DNA of 64,000 nt, taken from contig JBFWVL010000001.1 in the NCBI GenBank assembly GCA_050246755.1, forward strand, positions 768,001 through 832,000, written 5' to 3'. Below, one piece after another: positions 52,884 through 64,000 of this stretch. The stretch is from Bacteriovoracia bacterium (lineage in GTDB: Bacteria > Bdellovibrionota > UBA1018 > CAIPTA01). Positions within the stretch are counted from its first letter, which is position 1. The number at the start of each line of letters is the position of its first letter. The position numbers and the translations under genes are program-made. The notes under the pieces were generated by a model. The model was not told the origin of the DNA. It searched no databases and saw only the letters and a list, made by a program, of their open reading frames with translations.

Positions 52884-54950
52884 ATGTCGCCCTTGCAACC
52901 ATACCTCTCACAACCTAAATACCGCGCAGATATTGACGGGCTTAGGGCGATCGCCGTACTTTCTATCGTTATTTTCCACGCGTTCCCCTCCTTGGTAAAG
53001 GGGGGCTTCATCGGAGTGGACGTCTTTTTCGTCATCTCAGGCTTTCTCATTTCTACGATTATTTTTGAGAATCTGGACAGAGGCACGTTTAGCTTTGTTG
53101 AATTTTACGTGCGTCGGATCAAACGGATTTTTCCGGCCCTTCTCCTGGTCCTAGTCGCATGCTACGTATTTGGCTGGTTTGCCCTGCTGGCAGAAGAATA
53201 CAAACAGCTAGGTAAACACATCGCCGCTGGTGCTGGCTTTTTTTCTAACTTTGGTTTTTGGAGCGAGGCGGGATATTTTGACAATTTAGCAGAAATTAAG
53301 CCGCTACTACACTTATGGAGCCTTGGGATTGAAGAGCAGTTCTATATAGTTTGGCCAGTATTGCTTTGGCTGGCTTGGAAAATGAAGCTTCATCTCTTAA
53401 AAATTACGATCTGTGTAGCGGCCCTATCTCTCTACCTTAATCTAACTGGCATAAAAACGGACCCCGTAGCCACATTCTATTCCCCCCAAACTCGTTTCTG
53501 GGAAATACTTTTCGGCTGCCTATTGGCCTGGGCCATGCTCTATAAAAGGGGGGCGCTTGATGCCGTTCACTCCAGGCTTACTCATCGGCTCACCCCTGAT
53601 GCGCCTCGAGAAAAGCCAGGTGCTGATAGTAAAACGCTAACTAATACTTTCTCACTCCTTGGGCTTTTGCTCTTGTGTTACGGATTTGGGAGAATCAATA
53701 ATGAGCTCGGCTTTCCTGGCATCTGGGCAGTCTTTCCCGTACTTGGCACTACGCTAATCATTCTTGCCGGCCCCAACGCGTGGCTTAATCATCATTTATT
53801 ATCAAATAGGATTTTAGTCTGGTTTGGTTTGATAAGTTTTCCGCTCTACCTGTGGCATTGGCCCATGCTCTCATTTGCTCGCATTATCGAAGGCGATGCT
53901 TTGAATGACAACGTCCGTATAGCCATGGTTGCCCTATCTGTTCTACTTGCTTGGCTTACGTATCTGGTTGTAGAGCGCCCGGTACGGCTGGCAAAGCGTA
54001 GCGGGCGCAAGGCTATTGCCCTCGCTGTGCTGATGGCTGTCGTCGGTGTTGTGGGTCACTACACAGAAAGAAAGAATGGGCTGAGCTTTAGAAATAGAAT
54101 TCTTGAAGATAATCTTAAGAAGTTTTCTTGGCCGGAATCCAAAAATAGAGACCCCGAGTGCATAAAAAAATTTGGCGGATTATTCACCGACTATTGCCTA
54201 ATTAGTAATCCAAAAAAAGATCCAGAAATTATTTTATTGGGCGATTCTAACGCGAACCATTTCTATGAAGGCTTGAAAGCGGTATTTGGTGACAAAAATT
54301 TTCTTATGATCGGGCAAGGCGGCTGCTTACCGTTTGTTGGCCTAACGGTAAAAATGAATCAAATCGAGTTGGAATGTGACCGCGAACTGAATCCCGCATT
54401 GGAGCTAATTAAATCAAATCGGTCTGTGAAGACCGTAATTATTTCTATGCAAGGACAGACCTACGTTAACGGTCAGATAACCTGCAATGGCGACACAGGC
54501 TTCTTAGAGGTGCACGAGGTTGGTAAGAATGAGCCCAGAGATAGACTTACTTTATTTGAAGAGGGCATGCGAAGGACCTTAAAACTATTACTAGATGAAA
54601 GAAAAAAAGTGGTCTTCATCCTGAGTATTCCCCGGCTTAGCTATTCACTCTCCGAATGCATGGGCATTCGCCCTCTTTTGTTTTCGGCAAAGCCAAGCAT
54701 GAGCCAATGCGCAATGCCTAAAGAGGAATATTTAAGCGATAGCAATGCGTATATAGGAATCGTAACCAAAGTTTTGAAGGACTTTCCTACCGTCAAAGTT
54801 TTTGATCCTAGCGCTGTATTGTGTGATGAGAAAAATTGCTATGCAGAGAAAGATGGCCAAGTGCTGTATCGAGATGACCGTCATCTATCCAGCTTTGGCT
54901 CTCTGTATATGGGAAGAGCCATTAAGCAGACAAGACTGGTCTCTGATTAA
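52884..54950 (+). CDS. Acyltransferase family 3 with C-terminal SGNH domain (OafA-like)
   Basis: YRADIDGLRAIAV, GGFIGVDVFFVISGFLI, HLWSLGIEEQFY, LYLWHWP; SGNH GDSNA and DxxH (DDRHL). AT-rich. Confidence 0.93.
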   Translation: MSPLQPYLSQPKYRADIDGLRAIAVLSIVIFHAFPSLVKGGFIGVDVFFVISGFLISTIIFENLDRGTFSFVEFYVRRIKRIFPALLLVLVACYVFGWFALLAEEYKQLGKHIAAGAGFFSNFGFWSEAGYFDNLAEIKPLLHLWSLGIEEQFYIVWPVLLWLAWKMKLHLLKITICVAALSLYLNLTGIKTDPVATFYSPQTRFWEILFGCLLAWAMLYKRGALDAVHSRLTHRLTPDAPREKPGADSKTLTNTFSLLGLLLLCYGFGRINNELGFPGIWAVFPVLGTTLIILAGPNAWLNHHLLSNRILVWFGLISFPLYLWHWPMLSFARIIEGDALNDNVRIAMVALSVLLAWLTYLVVERPVRLAKRSGRKAIALAVLMAVVGVVGHYTERKNGLSFRNRILEDNLKKFSWPESKNRDPECIKKFGGLFTDYCLISNPKKDPEIILLGDSNANHFYEGLKAVFGDKNFLMIGQGGCLPFVGLTVKMNQIELECDRELNPALELIKSNRSVKTVIISMQGQTYVNGQITCNGDTGFLEVHEVGKNEPRDRLTLFEEGMRRTLKLLLDERKKVVFILSIPRLSYSLSECMGIRPLLFSAKPSMSQCAMPKEEYLSDSNAYIGIVTKVLKDFPTVKVFDPSAVLCDEKNCYAEKDGQVLYRDDRHLSSFGSLYMGRAIKQTRLVSD

Positions 54951-55057
54951 AACTAGATCGGCAACGATTTTTCAAGTGCATCTGAAAATTTCAAAAATGA
55001 CACAATTACGCACCAGAAAATGATCAAAATTTCGATCCATGGATTTGTGCGAATTAT

Positions 55058-55591
55058 TTATTTAATCAGGCACGGCGACGAGAAATCCAAAGATAGCGAA
55101 TTTGCTGCCGAATCAAGCTTGTAATCGATAGCAACCTGACAAGCGCCACTGGCAGGAAGATTGATCTTAACTTCTTTTTCAAGTTTTATTTTGGGCCTAT
55201 TCTTACCCATACCCTCTGGGTAATAGGCCCCTCTGGCAGTTACTGTGACAATTCTTATCTTCGGAGATTTTTGGCCAGCCTTTTGAAAGAAGAGCAATTC
55301 GTATTTACCAAACCTAGCATCTTCCAGATCAAATTTAGCGCTACTCAAAGAGGGCTCGCTTTCCCCCGTAATGCTCCCTAAATAGCTATTATCGTACCCG
55401 ATCTTGCCCGGAAGCTCTTTCCTCGTTAAAGGATCGATTCCACCCTTTACGCCACCCGGCAAAGTAAATTGGAAATCAGCAAATTGGCCATCCGCCCAAA
55501 TCGCGACTATGTTTTCCGACCCCTTGGCCCAGGAGCTATTTGCTCCGAGGAACAGCAGAGATACCAGCAGCAGGTTTTTGGCTAACTTCAT
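55058..55591 (-). CDS. Small secreted protein; last gene (D) of the four-gene operon
   Basis: SD GGAG, signal peptide MKLAKNLLLVSLLFLGANSSWA; overlaps the upstream gene end by 56 bp. Confidence 0.75.
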   Translation of the reverse strand: MKLAKNLLLVSLLFLGANSSWAKGSENIVAIWADGQFADFQFTLPGGVKGGIDPLTRKELPGKIGYDNSYLGSITGESEPSLSSAKFDLEDARFGKYELLFFQKAGQKSPKIRIVTVTARGAYYPEGMGKNRPKIKLEKEVKINLPASGACQVAIDYKLDSAANSLSLDFSSPCLIK

Positions 55592-58500
55592 TTGTTTCTC
55601 CGTTGATCCGTAGCACCACAGGGCCATCTAGGTCTATTCTGGCCTGATTGATCTGAAAATTCAAAGCCTCAACAAAACCCTCATTGCGCTCAATCTCTGC
55701 CTCAATTTGGGCCCGGCGGGCCTCCGTAAGCTCCTTAGAAAGAAGTTTCCGCAGCTTCTCATTCTCGCGACTATATTTGCTAATGCCACGCGAAAGCTCC
55801 GTCTTTATTTTGCGATCGACCATGTAGGAGTAAACCTCCCAATAACTAGGCCCCTGATTACTTACAGCCGCCTCAGCAGCAAAGAGCCGCTCGGTCTTGT
55901 TTCTGGTCGCAATCTGCCTACCATCGAGGTAAACGTCTACTCCGTATTCGTACTCGCCATTTAGGTCGTTCAAGAGCTCAACTGAGACAACCGAGCGAGC
56001 GCCAATATTTACCGTGGAATTTGTGGTGGCAATTTGAACGAGTTTATTCGTTTTTCGCTCACTCTTTGGCGCTACACCAGCAAATAAATCCCCCCCGACG
56101 AGAAAAGCCATTCCGAGGCTCCTCGTGTAAGGCACTGAGGGCGGAGTCTCAAAATTATGAATCTCAACGTGGATCAGCCCATTTTGATAAAGAACAATCC
56201 GAACAGGTTGATCTCCGTCCTCTTCATAAACGAAGTCGCTGCCACTATGCACGAAAGTTCCAGCAGGAATATTACGTTTCCATGCGCTTCCATTCACAAA
56301 AACCGAGATGTCCTGGGTATCTGGGTAGTAGACGCCGCCACCGCCAGTCAACATTCCCTCAATCAGGATTGAATCCGAGCCAACTTCAAATCTACTAAAC
56401 TGCATCGTACCTTTTAGCACCTGCATATCCGAGTAGCTAAAAGTATAGGAAGAGGGCGCGCTAGGAGAGGAAGTAAATGGGATCTGCAGAAATTTATTCA
56501 GCACTCCGTTTGGCCCCATCATCGAAATTTCAATCACATCGCTAACGGTTTCGCTGCTCGTAATCTCTACGGTGAAGGCATCACCATTGTGGACGGGATG
56601 AACCCATACACTATTACTACCTTCCGAAATATCGTTCCCACCATCCGAGTCATCAAGACGCTCAGAAGTAAAGTTCGAGTTTGGAATATTCTCAAGAACT
56701 TGGCCGTTAGAATTGATCCCGGTCGTTCGGTTGCTCGAATCTTTGAGCCTAAAGGCCGTTGCTGCGCTCATACTCACGTAAACTGAGCTGCTATCACTAG
56801 CTATCTTTGCCTGCGGGGGCGCCGCATGAATGGTTCGGTAGTCCTTAAATTTATTTTCTGTGAACCAGAGATCATTTAACGTTTTGATTCCATTTTTCCC
56901 TGGATCGATGATCGCAAGAGTCTTTACAAAATTTCCATTTTTATCTTTCACCATGGCAATGCCGTTGGCCACGACGAAGTGCGAGGTGCCTTCTCGGCGC
57001 TTTTGTTTATCCCTCCGCCGGTTTTCGACAAATCCCTCTGGAAATCCTTCAATATGCAATATCACTGGCTCGCCAGAGAGAACTAATGTTTCTACTTCAG
57101 CAAACGAAGAACTATCCTTTTTATCATACACGAGCCCAAGTGACCTCATCGCATCTTTAATTTCGTCAGGCTGAGGATCATGCTTGGCATTAAAAAAATT
57201 CGGGATCGAAGAAAACCACGAATTAATACCACCAGGCGTGACCTCTTGAGATTTATCGGAAGTATCATCGAGCGGAATGGCGTCCACACCATTCGCCTTT
57301 ATGAGCATCGCAATCGACGACAAAAAGCAGCCTTTTTTCCCTATGGTGTTCGTGCTCGAATCATAGATATCTTTTTTCCAGGGAGTGTTTTTGTATTTGG
57401 CATCAACAGCCTGCGCGAGCCGATCGACTTTCACCACATGCGCTATCGCTCCAACTTTCACCGAGGCCGTCGCGGTAGACGAAGCGCCAGATGAATCTCT
57501 AACGGTGAGTTTTATCGGGTAGGTATCAGGATCGTCTCCCGTAGGCACATCAACCTCAGCGCCGGAATATGTCCGCGCAGCGCCTTTTTTTGGCTTTACC
57601 GTCCACTCGTAAGTCAGGCCTCCCTGCGGCGTCGAGCTCGCGCCACTTAAATGGAATGAATCATGAATCAATGCATCGATAGGGGCAGTAATTTTTGCCG
57701 TAACGGCATTTGGATCGCCCTCTCGAGAAATCTGCACATTGACGGTGACCTGTCCCGATGCAGGAATGGAGTAATTATCTTGAACATTCACTACAAAACT
57801 ATCGGAAGTAGCAGTTGTATTTGCATCCGCTGTGTAAGTTACGATCCCAGAATGAAGTCCGACGCTCGCCGTGCCATGACTTGACCCGCCGTTGACAACA
57901 GCGTAGGTCATGGTCTGCCCAGCATCAGGGTCATGTGGGCTTATCGTGATTGTCGCCGGCACGCCGGGCCTTACCGTCACGGGATTCGGAGAAGCAGTGG
58001 GCTGCGGTGGATGATTCTGAAAGGCCCCAACTCGCACTAAAAGTTCTGCGGTGTCTGTGGAATTCCCGCAATTGGCCACGCTTAATTGAATTCGATAATT
58101 TCCCGCTTCCGTTGGCGTGAACGCATTCGTCTTCTTATAAGTTGGCCCATCTAGTGGCGCGGGGCTCGAGTCGTCTTCCCGAAATGCCAACCACACGAAG
58201 GCCATGTCGTTATTTTGGTCTTCCGTAGAAGCTCGCCCATCTAGAAAAATGATATCGCCAAGCGTTGCGTCGATTACGGTCTGCAGGGGCCGTTCTCTAT
58301 TTTTTAATTTTTTTGCCCCGGTAATATTCGCATTGATAACGGCATGCACGCTCCCGAAATTTTGCGTGCCCTCTTCCGCGCGATAAATGCCCCGGATTCC
58401 AGTATCGAGACCGGCATAAAACATCACCAAATTGTCTTGAACGATTTTGGGATGAAATTGGATGAAATCAACTGCGGCCCCAGCGATACAGGCGCTCGGA

Positions 58501-59435
58501 GCCACGATTTCGCGAATATCCCCGTCTGTGTAATTCATCGTTTTTAACGTAACGCCGGCGTTTAATTTATATAAAATGCGCCCGCCCTTGGCATCGAAGG
58601 TTTGGCTATTGGGATCGAGGAAGGAGGAGGCCTCGCCAATTATCCCGAGTGCCCCCGTTTCCGGGTCAAGCTGGTAGCGCCCTTCCCGCACAAAGAACTG
58701 ATTTGAATAAATCGCCCCCTCAAAAATAATTTTCCCATTTTCGTCCAGCGCATACGTTCCAGTGCGCGGGCGAGCCTGAAAAATTAGATCCGATTGGGGA
58801 TTCCCACCTTTAAAAAATCCCTGCTCCACCCAAGGAGTATTGGGATTAGACGGCGGATTTAGCCCAGCCAAGAAAACTACGTGGCCGCTTGGAGTAACTA
58901 GGGGCGGGCCAAGCGATTGGAAAGTGCCGGGAGCGCCGCCTTGAGTGGCGGTCGCGAGAAGCTGCCCGTCAAAAAAGATGCGTCCATCCAGCGTTTGAAA
59001 GGCAAGCTGCCCGCCTTCGTTAAGGCTCATGCTAAGAATCGGCGCCGAGAAAGTCCACGGCATCACCTCTTGGAAAGTGCCGGTAGGATTAGCCGCGTTG
59101 ACTCTTGTAATCCCAACCGAGCTATCGGTAAAAGCGGTGTACATCGCGATCCAGCCGGAATGGTCAAAGGCAGCACTAAAGATCACCGAAACTTTTTTTC
59201 CCGTGTTTACGGTTTGCGAAACGCCGGCGGTGATAACTTTTGTGACAACGCCTTGCTCAGTTTTTCGGTAAACCGCCGCTCCATCGCGAAAGAGATAGGA
59301 GCCGTCGGCGAGTTGAGTAACCTCCTCGCCGAGAACACCGTATTCTTCCGTGGTAGCAATGGCACGCAGGCGAACTGCGTGCGCATTGCTGACCAGCAAA
59401 AACAGACCGAAAAGAACCAGGGCAAGGCGTTTCAT
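55536..59435 (-). CDS. Large secreted protein (C): NxxGxxAF propeller-like repeats, PKD/Ig domains, C39-like cysteine peptidase, C-terminal shared hairpin module
   Basis: Signal peptide; SLNEGGQLAF repeat; LDGRAS and LSGASS...YEW PKD-like; HGTASV Ig; TIGKKGCFLSSIAM (Cys703), HFVV (His819), IIDPG (Asp844). Confidence 0.85.
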   Translation of the reverse strand: MKRLALVLFGLFLLVSNAHAVRLRAIATTEEYGVLGEEVTQLADGSYLFRDGAAVYRKTEQGVVTKVITAGVSQTVNTGKKVSVIFSAAFDHSGWIAMYTAFTDSSVGITRVNAANPTGTFQEVMPWTFSAPILSMSLNEGGQLAFQTLDGRIFFDGQLLATATQGGAPGTFQSLGPPLVTPSGHVVFLAGLNPPSNPNTPWVEQGFFKGGNPQSDLIFQARPRTGTYALDENGKIIFEGAIYSNQFFVREGRYQLDPETGALGIIGEASSFLDPNSQTFDAKGGRILYKLNAGVTLKTMNYTDGDIREIVAPSACIAGAAVDFIQFHPKIVQDNLVMFYAGLDTGIRGIYRAEEGTQNFGSVHAVINANITGAKKLKNRERPLQTVIDATLGDIIFLDGRASTEDQNNDMAFVWLAFREDDSSPAPLDGPTYKKTNAFTPTEAGNYRIQLSVANCGNSTDTAELLVRVGAFQNHPPQPTASPNPVTVRPGVPATITISPHDPDAGQTMTYAVVNGGSSHGTASVGLHSGIVTYTADANTTATSDSFVVNVQDNYSIPASGQVTVNVQISREGDPNAVTAKITAPIDALIHDSFHLSGASSTPQGGLTYEWTVKPKKGAARTYSGAEVDVPTGDDPDTYPIKLTVRDSSGASSTATASVKVGAIAHVVKVDRLAQAVDAKYKNTPWKKDIYDSSTNTIGKKGCFLSSIAMLIKANGVDAIPLDDTSDKSQEVTPGGINSWFSSIPNFFNAKHDPQPDEIKDAMRSLGLVYDKKDSSSFAEVETLVLSGEPVILHIEGFPEGFVENRRRDKQKRREGTSHFVVANGIAMVKDKNGNFVKTLAIIDPGKNGIKTLNDLWFTENKFKDYRTIHAAPPQAKIASDSSSVYVSMSAATAFRLKDSSNRTTGINSNGQVLENIPNSNFTSERLDDSDGGNDISEGSNSVWVHPVHNGDAFTVEITSSETVSDVIEISMMGPNGVLNKFLQIPFTSSPSAPSSYTFSYSDMQVLKGTMQFSRFEVGSDSILIEGMLTGGGGVYYPDTQDISVFVNGSAWKRNIPAGTFVHSGSDFVYEEDGDQPVRIVLYQNGLIHVEIHNFETPPSVPYTRSLGMAFLVGGDLFAGVAPKSERKTNKLVQIATTNSTVNIGARSVVSVELLNDLNGEYEYGVDVYLDGRQIATRNKTERLFAAEAAVSNQGPSYWEVYSYMVDRKIKTELSRGISKYSRENEKLRKLLSKELTEARRAQIEAEIERNEGFVEALNFQINQARIDLDGPVVLRINGETNEVSQKPAAGISAVPRSK

Positions 59436-59448
59436 TTTCGACTCCTAG

Positions 59449-62400
59449 TTATCTCGCACTGCAAGCCGGCGCGTAGCCTAAACCGCACGACTTCTCAAAC
59501 AATTTGCTGGCACCAAAGGCATCGCCGTCTTCTTGGTACATTTTCCCAAGGAAGTAGCAAGCCGGGGCGTTCTTCGTGGCGCATGCGCCAGATAGCTGCT
59601 TGCGCTTGGCTTTGCGCGCAGGATCTTCCGAATCCTCTTCACGCTTAACTTTTATTTTGAATTCTTCATTCACGGTTACGGGAACGTAAGCAACATGGAC
59701 GTTACCCTCATCGTCGTGCACTTCCAGGTTGGGAAAGTATACTCCCGGATTGGCGTACGTATGTGAAGCATACTCCGATTCATCCACGCATCCGTCGCTT
59801 GGACAAGCATCGTAGTCTTCGTAGCGCCATTTATAGCTGGTGATGGTTCCACCGGCCACGTCGTAGGAGGCTAGCGCATCTGCATTAAAGGCAAAGGGCA
59901 CAACGCCGCTTACTTCTTGAACGGACGAGACGGCTCTCGGAGAATGACCAGTCGCCACCACGTAGATTTCCCATCCTAAGTATCCCTCTTCTCCGGCACT
60001 CGAAGTAACTAGAAGCGTCGGAAAGTGGTTGAAAGGATATGAATACGTATGCGTTCCAGTCACGCCGCTAAAATTGCAAGGACCGCCTGGATTCGTTAGG
60101 CAATCAAAAAAACCATCGTTGGTCTGCCATTCGTAGGAATCTATAGTTCCTCCCGGATTGGGATTAAAAGAGCCGTAAGCATCAAAGGTCATGGGGGTGC
60201 CTACTAAAATTTCTCGGCCAGGAAGCAGCGCCGCGCTGAAGGTACTTGCCGTACCGGCCGCGGGGGCATTTACGCCGACGTAAATTCTAACGGAAGCCTC
60301 TCCTTCACCACCGTTTGGATCCCGGACACGAAGTCGAACATTGAATTGCCCGGGAGTATTGAACGTATGCGAGCGAATAGGTGAGCTCGTTACTTCCTCC
60401 GCGTTTTCAAACAACCAACGATACTCGGGAGTACCGCCAAGCGAAGTGGTCTCGCTCGCGTCGAAGACAACGGTAAGCGGAAAAGTACCGGTGATCTTGT
60501 TCGGAGAAATTTTCGCTACCGGCACAGCTTTGTCCGTGACTACAACGGTGGTGGTGGTGGAAGTCGTTGCGCCCTTATTGTCTTTGGCCGTGATCGTGGC
60601 CGTATAGCTTCCGGGCAATTGATAATCATGCAGTGCACTGACAAACCAAGCGGTGCCTGGAGTGAAAACACTGCTTGGGAACGTTTCAACAGGTCTTCCA
60701 TCTCCAAAGTCGATGGTCCACTGAACGATCGATCCATCCGAGTCGGTAGCCGGGACGTTGGCAATCCGCATCGTCGTTGGCGAACCTTGGCTGCGAACAA
60801 ACGAGAAACTGGGACCAAGTACAGGCGGGCGATTGGGAATCGTGATTGCAATCGTCACTTCCCCACTCTTTGCGGGCGATCCATTGTCCGTGACACGAAC
60901 TTTTAACGAATCGCTGCCTTCGTAGGTAGTGGCCGCATTAAAAGTAACCAGGCCGGAAGAATTCACCGAGGCCGTTCCATGCAAGGGATTAACCACGATG
61001 GCATAGGTATGAGTTTGCCCCACATCGAGGTCGTTTGCAGCGACCTGAGAAGTTCCAGTATTGCTCGAAACCGTGATGCTTGGTGCCGAGGGAACAGGTG
61101 CCTGATTTTCCGCCGAAACGGTAACTGGAATTATTACGTCGCCGGAAAGACTTGGCGCTCCGCTGTCCGTTACGCGAACGGTAATAGAATCCGATCCGGA
61201 GTATCCGGCGGTTGCATTGTAGTAAACGACGCCCATTAAAGAGACGGAAGCCGTTCCATGGGTAGGAGCAGAAACAACGCTGAAGGTCCAGCTCTGGTTT
61301 CCATCGGCGTCGTTCGGCGCAACCGTAGTGGTACCCTGAATATTCGAAACGGTGGTGACGGGTGGTGCCGAAGGGGCGGGCGCATGGTTAGTAGGACCCA
61401 CTACTTCGATCGTGGTCAGCGAAGGCTCACTCACCAAGTGATCGCTAGTATTTATCTCCCTAACTTTAAGCTCAAAAATATAGTAGCCAGCGGCCGTAAG
61501 CGTTAGGTGCGGCTGAATCTCGGTGGAGATCACCTGGCCAACGGTTAATCCGGAACCCAGCGGAGCATCCACTACTTTCCATTCATAAGAAAGAGTCGTG
61601 CCCGGATTGGGATCATAGGAACCTGTGCCATCCATAGACATATCCGATCCAAGCAGGAACGAATGATGCGGGCCAGCCACCGCGACCGGTTGCACATTAT
61701 TTTCAAGAGAAGAGTTTGTTACAAAATATGCGTTTCTGAGGAAGCTATTGCGCACTTCCGTAGAGCCGCTAAGCGGAGGAAAACGGACTTCGAGATCTTT
61801 AATTCCGGTTAAAGACCCAAAACTAGGGGCAACCGCCGTAATCGTAGTAGCATTTACAAGGGAAGCACTGGCACTAAGCCCGCCAATCCTGACCGTCATT
61901 CCGGGGACAAAATTTTCACCGCTGATGACGATCTGATTACCGCCGCTAGCGGATCCCACCTGCGGGGAAATCGCAGTCAGCCTAGGATAAGCTGCATTGC
62001 TGGCCGCAGGCACTACATTGAAAGTAAACGTCTGGTTTGCAACCGGAGTCTTTAGCTCAGCAAGCTGGCGGATAAGCTCGTTCTTGATCGCGATTTTTTC
62101 ATCACGCTGGGAAGTAAAGGTCGCTTTCTTCACAGGATCAGTTTCAACATCTATTTTCTGCTGAAGCTCAAAAATTTCTTTGGAGAGCCTATCAACAGAG
62201 GTGCGAATCTGATTGGCAAGGTCTTTCCTTTCTATGGCAAGGCCAATGGTGAGATCGTGAGAGCGTTGTTCCGAAAAGCCACTAGAGTGATAAATCCATA
62301 AGTTTGGCGAGCTATGAATCAAGCCAACTGGCGCATTGTCGATTGTGGCGTTTAGCAAAATATTTGAGTCGGTATAGGAATTTAAGGGAGCAATGAAAAT

Positions 62401-62604
62401 AGAAAATTCGGTGCCCTGCTCCACTGAGGCGGAAGGAGACGGCATGAATTTTACGATCGGCGCTTGCTCGAGTTTTCGAACCTTTCTTGTGTGCTTAAAG
62501 CTTTTAATGAGCTTATAGGCGGCATTATTCGTTTTATCTCCGCTAGCAAAGGCCGAAGTTGCAAAAAAAGACAAAGCAAGGGCAGCAAAAAGGTACTTTT
62601 TCAT
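59449..62604 (-). CDS. Large secreted adhesin-like protein (B): N-terminal shared hairpin module, IPT/TIG, PKD, two Ig (Big_9/cadherin-like), four PKD, Sel1-like tail
   Basis: Signal peptide; ISP..G...GG..I.ISGENF; DGTGSYDP...YEW; two HGTASV...GSDS repeats; DFGDG...H.Y..PG.Y; C-terminal C..K...ACYFLG..Y...C.LG...AC. Confidence 0.88.
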   Translation of the reverse strand: MKKYLFAALALSFFATSAFASGDKTNNAAYKLIKSFKHTRKVRKLEQAPIVKFMPSPSASVEQGTEFSIFIAPLNSYTDSNILLNATIDNAPVGLIHSSPNLWIYHSSGFSEQRSHDLTIGLAIERKDLANQIRTSVDRLSKEIFELQQKIDVETDPVKKATFTSQRDEKIAIKNELIRQLAELKTPVANQTFTFNVVPAASNAAYPRLTAISPQVGSASGGNQIVISGENFVPGMTVRIGGLSASASLVNATTITAVAPSFGSLTGIKDLEVRFPPLSGSTEVRNSFLRNAYFVTNSSLENNVQPVAVAGPHHSFLLGSDMSMDGTGSYDPNPGTTLSYEWKVVDAPLGSGLTVGQVISTEIQPHLTLTAAGYYIFELKVREINTSDHLVSEPSLTTIEVVGPTNHAPAPSAPPVTTVSNIQGTTTVAPNDADGNQSWTFSVVSAPTHGTASVSLMGVVYYNATAGYSGSDSITVRVTDSGAPSLSGDVIIPVTVSAENQAPVPSAPSITVSSNTGTSQVAANDLDVGQTHTYAIVVNPLHGTASVNSSGLVTFNAATTYEGSDSLKVRVTDNGSPAKSGEVTIAITIPNRPPVLGPSFSFVRSQGSPTTMRIANVPATDSDGSIVQWTIDFGDGRPVETFPSSVFTPGTAWFVSALHDYQLPGSYTATITAKDNKGATTSTTTTVVVTDKAVPVAKISPNKITGTFPLTVVFDASETTSLGGTPEYRWLFENAEEVTSSPIRSHTFNTPGQFNVRLRVRDPNGGEGEASVRIYVGVNAPAAGTASTFSAALLPGREILVGTPMTFDAYGSFNPNPGGTIDSYEWQTNDGFFDCLTNPGGPCNFSGVTGTHTYSYPFNHFPTLLVTSSAGEEGYLGWEIYVVATGHSPRAVSSVQEVSGVVPFAFNADALASYDVAGGTITSYKWRYEDYDACPSDGCVDESEYASHTYANPGVYFPNLEVHDDEGNVHVAYVPVTVNEEFKIKVKREEDSEDPARKAKRKQLSGACATKNAPACYFLGKMYQEDGDAFGASKLFEKSCGLGYAPACSAR

Positions 62605-62628
62605 AATGGTTCCTTCAGTTAGAAAAAC

Positions 62629-63663
62629 TTATAAAACGTTGATGGTTAAACTTTGCGGCGAACCGACTGGCCGCCGACCCGCGGTAAGCTCATTCTCTGC
62701 TCTCTCGATAAGGAGAAGATTGCGCGCTTTCTCTTGTTCGAGGGCCGCGATCGTATCGGGGTCTGTCGTCTCACTTAGAGCCTTTTCTATTCTTTCGTTT
62801 TCGCATTGCAGAAAATCAACGGTCTGATTAAGGCTCTCGGCGAGATGCCGGTCCTGCAAATACACGGAGACGGTCCAGGTTTTTTGCCCGACGGAGTCGA
62901 GTGGCGGGGTAACGGCGACAGCGAAATTTCTCGAAGCGTTTCTAACTGGCAGCGCTTCTCCTTCGAGAGTGGAGGTGGAAAAATATTCGAAGTCAGAGCT
63001 CTCAGGGGCGGCAAGGTAATGTACGACCAAGCTTGCGCTCTGCCCCAACTGATAATTCGCCTGATTTGAGCCGAGCTTAAACAGCGGATTTACCGGAACA
63101 GGCGGCGAAGGAGGATTACGAACGACTTCAATTCCGTTAATTTGCGCATGATCGACGACAGTCGCAAAATCAATCACGATATTGCCAAGGCCATTAGCCT
63201 GAGCGCTTACTTCCCGAACAACCGCAATATTTTTTCCGCCCGCCTCAGCGAAGATATCGAAATTCGTGAGGGAAGGTACGCTGCTCCCATTTACGAAGAC
63301 ATTGAATATGCGGGCTCCAGGAACGCTCCAATAAATTTCCGCCAGATGAAATCGGATCAAATATGACGCGCCCGCGCTAAGCCCGCCCACGACGTAGTTA
63401 AAATTTCCGTAACGAACCGACCTATATACTTCCTCTGGCGCAGGATTCACTACGTTCGCGCGATTAATCGGCAGCGTGCTCTCATAAGTAGCTCCCCCGC
63501 TGAAATCCATATCGGCCGAGAAATTCCCTATAGCCACGGCAGAACCACTATTGATCGCTACCTCGTCAACAGAAAAATTTCTTACTTTTGCTTCGGCGAA
63601 CGCCGAGCCAGAGAGCACAGAGAAAAAACACAGAATAGAAAAATATGCCTTCAACACAATCAT
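62629..63663 (-). CDS. Secreted malectin-domain protein (A) with C-terminal shared hairpin module
   Basis: Signal peptide; AINSG, VYRSVRYGNF.Y, FHLAEIY, GARIFNV, FDIFAEAGG, INGIEV; Pro linker PPSPPVP. Confidence 0.88.
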   Translation of the reverse strand: MIVLKAYFSILCFFSVLSGSAFAEAKVRNFSVDEVAINSGSAVAIGNFSADMDFSGGATYESTLPINRANVVNPAPEEVYRSVRYGNFNYVVGGLSAGASYLIRFHLAEIYWSVPGARIFNVFVNGSSVPSLTNFDIFAEAGGKNIAVVREVSAQANGLGNIVIDFATVVDHAQINGIEVVRNPPSPPVPVNPLFKLGSNQANYQLGQSASLVVHYLAAPESSDFEYFSTSTLEGEALPVRNASRNFAVAVTPPLDSVGQKTWTVSVYLQDRHLAESLNQTVDFLQCENERIEKALSETTDPDTIAALEQEKARNLLLIERAENELTAGRRPVGSPQSLTINVL

Positions 63664-64000
63664 CCTTAATCACACCCGCAGCAGAAATTCTCATTCTTAA
63701 GAATCCCCCGACAACCACGTGCACGTTATAAAAAATATAAATCTAGTTTTAAATTTGTTTACTTGCTCCAACTACCGATGAATAAGCTAAGGCCTTGCAC
63801 AAAATGCCGCAAGCAATATTTCTACTGGGCACGAAGCAAATCTTAAAAAGATATATATCGCCCCGCATTGTGCGTAACCAAAGCTAGCTAGATTGTCATT
63901 TGCGAAAACAATGGCAAAATAGACTCGATGCAGATTTATAAGAATATGTATTTTTGTTTATTTTATCTCTCGCACCGTGGAGATAGGGGCCAAAATCCCA

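Follow-up and report, generated by a model that had tools for sequence, protein, structure and literature searches.

In the cohesin-dockerin system, secreted proteins with different cargo carry a portable module and are assembled on a scaffold; the dockerin is a duplicated calcium-binding segment of about 70 amino acids (aa; Pfam Dockerin_1) and the cohesin is a jelly roll. In effector-associated domain (EAD) systems, the same small domain is found on several proteins of an operon, is thought to pair with itself and couples variable effectors to a core. Here, we describe a module shared by three exported proteins, A, B and C, which are encoded by one operon in a Bacteriovoracia bacterium, a relative of the predator Bdellovibrio (GenBank contig JBFWVL010000001.1, positions 768,001 to 832,000; this whole stretch of 64,000 nucleotides (nt) is called the window). 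The module is predicted to be an immunoglobulin (Ig)-like beta-sandwich with a 60-aa helical hairpin inserted before its last strand, and it is an unnamed, new domain family in the libraries that we used. Our best reading, still a tentative one, is that it is a shared protein-protein assembly (docking) unit, with putative binding between modules.

The system would work, if at all, in the manner of cohesin and dockerin or of same-domain adaptors, yet it belongs to none of them. Its likeness to cohesin and dockerin is conceptual, lying in a portable module on varied exported cargo and in binding that is here putative. However, cohesin and dockerin are two unlike partner folds, whereas here one module occurs on all partners and its two classes are homologous. 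Neither Dockerin nor Cohesin gave a Pfam match on A, B, C or the neighbouring open reading frame (ORF) D at an E-value of 0.1, and neither is among the 25 families listed for 70 aligned modules. The module shares with EADs the logic of a small domain that recurs among the products of an operon, but EADs are intracellular and all-helical, and the module is exported and mostly beta. The commonest sub-threshold Pfam matches of the 70 modules were of the coiled-coil type (ABC_tran_CTD in 13, T4SS in eight, EAD9 in seven). Those to EAD9 (PF19962, cut-off 25 bits) lay on the hairpin, with a best E-value of 1.5e-4 and, in one example, 16.4 bits over residues 97-130; as none of them reaches that cut-off and all resemble noise from coiled coils, membership of EAD9 was rejected.

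Among solved structures, only the N and S domains of GlgE (PDB 3zss, 4u2z, 5cgm) span both parts of the model. Foldseek aligned them to the module with an E-value of 1.9e-6, a TMq of 0.48 and a root mean square deviation (rmsd) of 11 Å, and VIA gave Z 9.3 over 137 residues with an rmsd of 8 Å. According to PMC4663749, domain N consists of residues 1-122 and 205-220 and domain S of residues 123-204, so that GlgE, too, has a helical insert before the last strand of its N-terminal sandwich; the same paper gives domain N as the main contact in the GlgE dimer, with contributions from its domains S and B. However, S has four helices in 82 aa, whereas the module hairpin has two in 60 aa; identity is 12-15%, at an rmsd of 8-11 Å; GlgE was absent from the PDB sequence matches of the module profile; and it is an enzyme of the cytosol, whereas the module is portable and terminal. 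Because of the four-helix S domain, the low identity and the lack of a profile match, we treat GlgE as an analogue at best.

The sandwich part taken alone resembles the Big and PKD families, and it superposes on 5no8 (Z 11.9, rmsd 1.6 over 78 aa) and on many Ig or fibronectin type III (Fn3) domains with Z 9-10. Those families, however, are without the 60-aa hairpin insert, and their Pfam cut-offs were not reached by the module (best Big_3_5, 21.7 bits vs 35.5; K319L-like_PKD, 1.2e-3); Big_3_5, MtxA_IG-like and A2M_BRD appeared as sub-threshold matches in one to four of the 70 members.

The shared module and its predicted fold

The original prediction, made from the letters of the window, was that each of the three genes encodes one module of about 150 aa, and the bounds given by a hidden Markov model (HMM; about 155 aa, Table 1) agree with its ranges. 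Pairwise BLASTP of the modules gave E-values of 2e-9 for A and C (158 aa), 2e-4 for A and B (81 aa) and 0.47 for B and C. Furthermore, searching the six-frame ORFs of the genome with a profile built from the three recovered six more copies (1e-23 to 2.4e-5), and the iterated search converged at nine copies. Thus, these scores and the recovery of further copies by the profile argue that the modules are homologous and not compositional look-alikes.

The sequence features proposed for the 60-aa inserts fared variously. Their gap-free alignment was reproduced, as were their net charges, and the conserved length extends to the family, with 60 aa in 69 of 70 modules. Position 60 is arginine or lysine in 64 of the 70 members, and seven of the eight hydrophobic positions (8, 12, 15, 22, 26, 38 and 56) are kept, being large and hydrophobic in at least 87%; the eighth, position 4, reaches only 54%. 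The glutamate at position 18 and the alanine at position 36, thought to be invariant, are so in the window but not in the family, where they occur in 31/70 and 41/69 modules. The TDP turn seen in A and B is part of a family turn, E-T-D-P, whose residues are present in 46, 48, 57 and 55 of the 70 members, and it is absent from C.

The module was expected to fall in no named family, and this was borne out by Pfam (a copy with models to 2025), NCBIfam 20.0 and PDB sequence families. When the 70 aligned members were scanned singly against Pfam, none reached a cut-off on the module and no family was consistent. A PDB profile search with the module returned just coiled-coil constructs (5apt, 1.3e-3), which we read as an effect of composition, and a PDB sequence search with C returned nothing. 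Similarly, the ESM Atlas gave no usable feature match, with all structure rows at TM below 0.5, and the best match in a viral structure library, at TMq 0.42, was not meaningful. A limited literature search on Bdellovibrio secreted, RCC1, RHS and malectin proteins, on Ig-like helical-hairpin oligomerization and on polymorphic toxins found no description of the module; PMC3818213, which deals with the RHS protein Bd0109 and pili, is not relevant to it.

An AlphaFold2 model from a nine-row alignment had a predicted local distance difference test score (pLDDT) of 93.4 and a predicted template modelling score (pTM) of 0.76. It places the strands of the sandwich at residues 8-84, two helices at 85-111 and 115-141, and one closing strand at 150-156, which is the anatomy that had been guessed: a run of strands, a helical insert and a single last strand. 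The sandwich part is modelled as two sheets with seven to eight strands, as in Ig/Fn3-like folds, and it superposes on solved Ig and Fn3 domains (VIA Z 9-11.9 over 78-94 aa, rmsd 1.6-3.4); the hairpin alone matches generic antiparallel hairpins. In both hairpin helices, large hydrophobic residues form a clean a/d (3-4) heptad stripe, beside which runs a stripe rich in alanine and serine. The fixed length and the two stripes would fit helices that match their partners in length and pack beyond each other.

Distribution, operons and two module classes

A profile search of 1.84 billion representative proteins found 425 at an E-value of 1e-3 or below, of which 301 reached 1e-10 and 40 reached 1e-30. 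Matches were present in six of the 41 nearest genomes, in 16 of 401 genomes sampled evenly from the phylum (among them a genus whose proteins NCBI names Bdellovibrio sp.), in five of 301 Planctomycetota genomes (best match 1.5e-16) and in none of 301 Bacteroidota genomes. The family is therefore real but rare. The 15 loci in other phyla that matched protein A did so through the malectin part only, and none of them encodes the module.

The module is portable and lies at the ends of proteins. We classified the architectures of 151 module proteins and found it at one end only in 147, meaning that the first module starts before residue 110 or the last one ends 30 residues or fewer from the C-terminus. 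One module with no other part made up 38 of these proteins and two modules with no other part a further 31. A single N-terminal module was followed by a long C-terminal part in 33 and by a short extension in seven; a single C-terminal module was preceded by a short part in 11 and by a long one in another 11; 14 had two N-terminal modules and an extension, and six took other forms. The cargo found in the window and related loci comprises Malectin, TIG/PKD, Big_9, Peptidase_C39_2, RCC1 propellers, PEGA and RHS repeats. The 38 single- and 31 double-module proteins without cargo would suit scaffold or adaptor subunits, and not a tag.

Module genes also come in sets. In the phylum sample, 15 of the 16 positive genomes had two to nine matches, and at every mapped locus the module genes were tandem and on the same strand, with two to five per operon, as had been foreseen for homologues in tandem secreted genes with varied cargo. 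A recurrent order runs from small module proteins through a B-type protein with the module and TIG/PKD to a large protein with a C-terminal module or two modules. B is the conserved core gene of this operon type, being 30-39% identical over most of its length to counterparts in five other loci; the cargo of C is not conserved among operons. In another genome (G007:C39), a 154-aa ORF between two C-type paralogues (L040:3982-4446) matches the Cys-rich C-terminus of a B-type protein on a different contig of that genome at 97% identity, a sign of recent duplication and rearrangement of module operons.

The nine copies in the present genome fall into three loci. Besides the window operon there is a paralogous operon (G000:C1:149-157 kb), which encodes a malectin-module protein of 341 aa, a module-only protein of 169 aa, a module-TIG/PKD protein of 959 aa and a 1148-aa protein with a C-terminal module. 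The third locus (33-37 kb) has two module genes (L008:8349-9449 and L008:4249-4920, in G000:C1:26000-42000) and is broken up by insertion sequence (IS) integrase (rve) genes; with just these two module genes left, it has the look of an operon copy in decay.

A maximum-likelihood tree of 44 modules from 13 loci separates a B side of 17 rows from an A side of 27 rows (support 88/69). All ten modules linked to TIG/PKD lie within one 14-row group (86/73), and the six core B orthologues, from the window and the five other loci, form a clade with support of 95/82. Both sides of the split are present in 10 of the 13 loci, the three exceptions being disrupted by insertion sequences or cut by contig ends, and three of six double-module proteins combine one half from each side. 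The approximately unbiased (AU) test rejected (p 0.005) a single clade for the three modules of the window, a grouping that was named after the tree had been seen but that is nonetheless the natural prior one. This rejection indicates that the three modules are old paralogues that have been kept separately, and old paralogues kept together are what would be expected of non-interchangeable subunits.

RHS proteins recur around the family. RHS/YD-shell genes adjoin the module operons at L041, L047, L049 and L050, and two proteins are RHS fusions with an N-terminal module: one at L045, of at least 1507 aa, and another, from a planctomycete, in an open frame that runs to 3955 aa and includes Ig and RHS repeats (RHS-related coordinates: L041:5296-9696, L047:1-3464, L050:10335-14018, L049:13781-16000, L045:3606-8127, L055:12090-20000). 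In RHS polymorphic toxins, trafficking domains regularly occupy the N-terminus of RHS/YD-shell proteins and go with a delivery system to match. The likeness of the module to these domains is that it precedes Ig and RHS repeats in these two proteins and has RHS neighbours at the four operons. The neighbours and fusions together suggest a link between the module and polymorphic-toxin delivery. However, most module proteins are without RHS repeats, no described RHS trafficking domain matched the module, no delivery system was found beside the loci examined, and the stretches examined at the three loci of the present genome contain no RHS gene.

A putative docking unit and its alternatives

We favour docking, as a best but tentative reading, because the module is portable and terminal, is joined to unrelated cargo, is abundant in copies without cargo, occurs in sets and in two old classes that are found together, and has a hairpin of constant length. 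The Ig-like sandwich would bear a projecting coiled-coil hairpin that is rigid, antiparallel and constant in length (2 x 27 residues); the module-bearing products of one operon would be exported by the Sec pathway and would then associate through their modules, most likely by bundling of the hairpins and between unlike partners. In this way, a conserved TIG/PKD stalk of the B class would be joined to interchangeable cargo and small module-only subunits of the A side. In the window, A would contribute a malectin lectin, B an adhesin-like stalk and C a C39-like cysteine peptidase to the complex. The system had been called extracellular; what is seen are Sec-type signal peptides only, and in this Gram-negative lineage the complex could have its final place in the periplasm, on the cell surface or in the medium.

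Modelling the A, B and C modules together gave a signal weakly above controls. With A as the scored partner, the complex of the B, C and A modules scored 0.49 (runs 0.35, 0.54 and 0.49), and the best of three controls scored 0.00; the runs shared at least 94% of contacts, and the pLDDT of the partner was at least 88. The calibration of this score covered 157 solved complexes, 116 of which reached the mark, and 215 mismatches, two of which did so; those reaching it at 0.60 or below were 18 of the 157 complexes and both mismatches.

Several points weigh against docking between unlike modules. The score falls in this weak band, and a three-chain job with author-made alignments lies outside its calibration; as the chains are paralogues, it cannot separate heterotypic from homotypic contacts, and the prediction reported no interface. 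An AlphaFold2 model of a natural double-module protein was poor (pLDDT 78, pTM 0.51, first module below 60 pLDDT) and thus shows no confident packing of one module on another. The charges of the three hairpins had hinted at complementarity, but the charge of B-class hairpins ranges from -11 to +6 and the operon sums are not neutral, which argues against a simple electrostatic pairing code; charge complementarity is not conserved across operons and was rejected as such a code. The conserved LQDK, ETDP, R143 and V146-G147 sit at helix ends and junctions and look structural, and no conserved surface patch was identified among the 70 members. Support for the split between the A and B sides is just moderate (88/69). 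Finally, three of the five positive Planctomycetota genomes have a single match, so that the module may be able to work without paralogous partners; homologues found singly rather than in clusters would have spoken against the original prediction, and they are clustered in the phylum but single in these three genomes. For the hetero-oligomerization or docking module as first proposed, the lack of a named family, the tandem genes with varied cargo and the constant hairpin length have held, and the charge hint and the single planctomycete copies have gone the other way.

If docking is correct, the module would be a new portable protein-assembly domain and part of an undescribed multi-subunit exported system in predatory bacteria, in which the proteins of prey recognition and attack are largely without assigned function. 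It would explain several 'hypothetical' operons of Bdellovibrio, link lectins, stalks, peptidases and RHS toxins in one apparatus and offer protein engineering a compact hairpin module of fixed geometry. A bolder proposal, which we consider possible but doubtful, is that predators of the Bdellovibrio phylum build a cellulosome-like exported complex, in which class-specific bundling of hairpins of fixed length, borne on a new Ig-like docking module, attaches interchangeable cargo to a conserved TIG/PKD stalk. The cargo may include a malectin lectin, a cysteine peptidase, RCC1 propellers and RHS toxins, and with such a complex, machinery for adhesion and attack would be assembled outside the cytoplasm in a way that is new. 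The family merits a name even if binding is not borne out, as it is confidently folded, sharply defined and absent from Pfam and NCBIfam.

Could each module instead be an independent anchor? All modules would then bind the same non-paralogous target (the outer membrane, an envelope polymer or the prey surface), and the proteins would be co-localized and not touching. Terminal placement on diverse cargo would suit such an anchor, as would hairpin charges without a conserved pairing code and the single copies in Planctomycetota, one of them N-terminal on the 3955-aa frame. However, the 69 of 151 proteins without cargo would anchor nothing, an anchor does not require a strict 60-aa length or two classes in 10 of 13 loci, and no candidate receptor gene recurs beside the operons. 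We regard this explanation as unlikely.

Another explanation, for which we would allow somewhat less, is homo-oligomerization. Here, each protein would self-multimerize through its hairpins, for example as a four-helix bundle, and raise the avidity of a lectin or adhesin; operon partners need not interact. The hairpin matches dimeric four-helix bundles such as the histidine-kinase dimerization domain 7n0e (Z 9.5, 60 aa), genomes with a single copy exist, and the weak complex score is compatible with homotypic contacts. Furthermore, PMC4663749 describes GlgE, the closest analogue of known structure, as a homodimer. What this explanation leaves unexplained is the presence of two to five different module genes per operon and the conserved, mixed classes, and it gives the module-only proteins no role.

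It is improbable, in our view, that the module is the repeat block of an extracellular fibre or sheath, with module-only or double-module proteins as major subunits and cargo-bearing ones as minor tips or decorations. The two commonest kinds of protein without cargo (38 module-only and 31 double-module, the commonest architectures of the 151) fit this picture, and at least one such gene is present in every operon examined in full, bar that of the window. The window operon is the difficulty here, being without a module-only gene; moreover, no usher, sortase or pilus-assembly genes recur nearby (one locus has one weak T2SSG-like ORF), and structure searches matched neither known pilins nor known fibre subunits.

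Type IX sorting domains are always C-terminal, are matched by the NCBIfam sorting-domain model and are typical of Bacteroidota. A secretion or sorting signal of that kind, for a dedicated export pathway, would explain a terminal beta-sandwich on many exported proteins, but it is very improbable, and the secretion or anchoring tag offered as the other half of the original prediction is unlikely, because the module lies at either end, N-terminal (after the Sec signal peptide) as often as C-terminal and in more than 50 of 151 proteins, because copies without cargo are common, and because the surroundings of six loci examined contain no recurrent genes for secretion or assembly; a type IX domain as such was rejected on this placement, the lack of an NCBIfam match and the 0/301 Bacteroidota genomes.

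The window operon and its surroundings

The three ORFs were found exactly where they had been predicted (Table 1). They are tightly spaced, with gaps of 24 bp between A and B and 13 bp between B and C, and Shine-Dalgarno-like motifs precede B (GAAGGA) and C (AGGAG). The signal peptides that had been assigned to them are hydrophobic N-termini ending, as judged by eye, in AFA, AFA and AHA for A, B and C.

Table 1. Genes, modules and hairpins of the operon, in window coordinates
Feature	Position	Strand	Description
Gene A	62629..63663	-	344 aa: signal peptide, Malectin (aa 37-176), C-terminal module
Module of A	62635..63099	-	aa 189-343 (HMM bounds); A side of module tree
Hairpin of A	62674..62853	-	60 aa, D271-R330; net charge -7
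Gene B	59449..62604	-	1051 aa: signal peptide, N-terminal module, TIG, PKD/Big_9 repeats, Cys-rich C-terminal segment of about 90 aa
Module of B	62011..62472	-	aa 45-198 (HMM bounds); B class
Hairpin of B	62050..62229	-	60 aa, R126-K185; net charge +2
Gene C	55536..59435	-	1299 aa: signal peptide, N-terminal beta-rich region, Big_9, PKD, Peptidase_C39_2 (aa 699-827), region without family, C-terminal module
Module of C	55596..56060	-	aa 1126-1280 (HMM bounds); A side of module tree, long branch
Hairpin of C	55638..55817	-	60 aa, D1207-R1266; net charge +3; without TDP turn
ORF D	55058..55627	-	189 aa; overlaps the 3' end of C by 92 nt

The malectin label given to A was confirmed by Pfam (4.4e-16). 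B had been described as an IPT, PKD, Ig and Sel1 protein; Pfam found TIG, several PKD and two Big_9 domains, and the Sel1 label was not confirmed, with no Pfam match on the last 90 aa even at an E-value of 10. This Cys-rich end (59449-59721, minus strand) is 35-47% identical across the B orthologues and is a second unnamed conserved element of the system. For C, labelled as propeller, Ig and C39 peptidase, Pfam found Big_9, PKD and Peptidase_C39_2 (1.3e-7), and Cys and His motifs were seen by eye in the C39-like domain. The propeller was likewise not confirmed, with just a sub-threshold Pfam match to DUF7453 (3.2e-4; 58026-59435, minus strand). The N-terminal region of a C-type protein in G007 (L038:10658-14425) also gave a sub-threshold DUF7453 match (8.9e-5), and BLASTP similarity between it and the window's C is confined to the module.

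ORF D has a signal-peptide-like segment from its 13th codon (an internal start). It was rejected as a member of the system, having neither the module nor a homologue in 40 related genomes, and it matched no Pfam family. D is probably outside the conserved system; it may be spurious as an ORF, or it may encode a partner or an inhibitor of the C peptidase that is specific to the lineage.

Downstream, the operon is flanked on the opposite strand by a gene for an AT3+SGNH acyltransferase (52884-54950, plus strand). A small XRE-type helix-turn-helix regulator gene (L010:1230-1538, minus strand) lies outside the window but close to its end, some 570 bp upstream of A. The public sequencing runs listed for the stretch are three DNA runs from one study, with no RNA run among them. 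The GC fraction is 0.45-0.48 at window positions 54001-58000 and 62001-64000, against 0.52-0.58 over most of the window, and parts of the operon are thus compositionally atypical.

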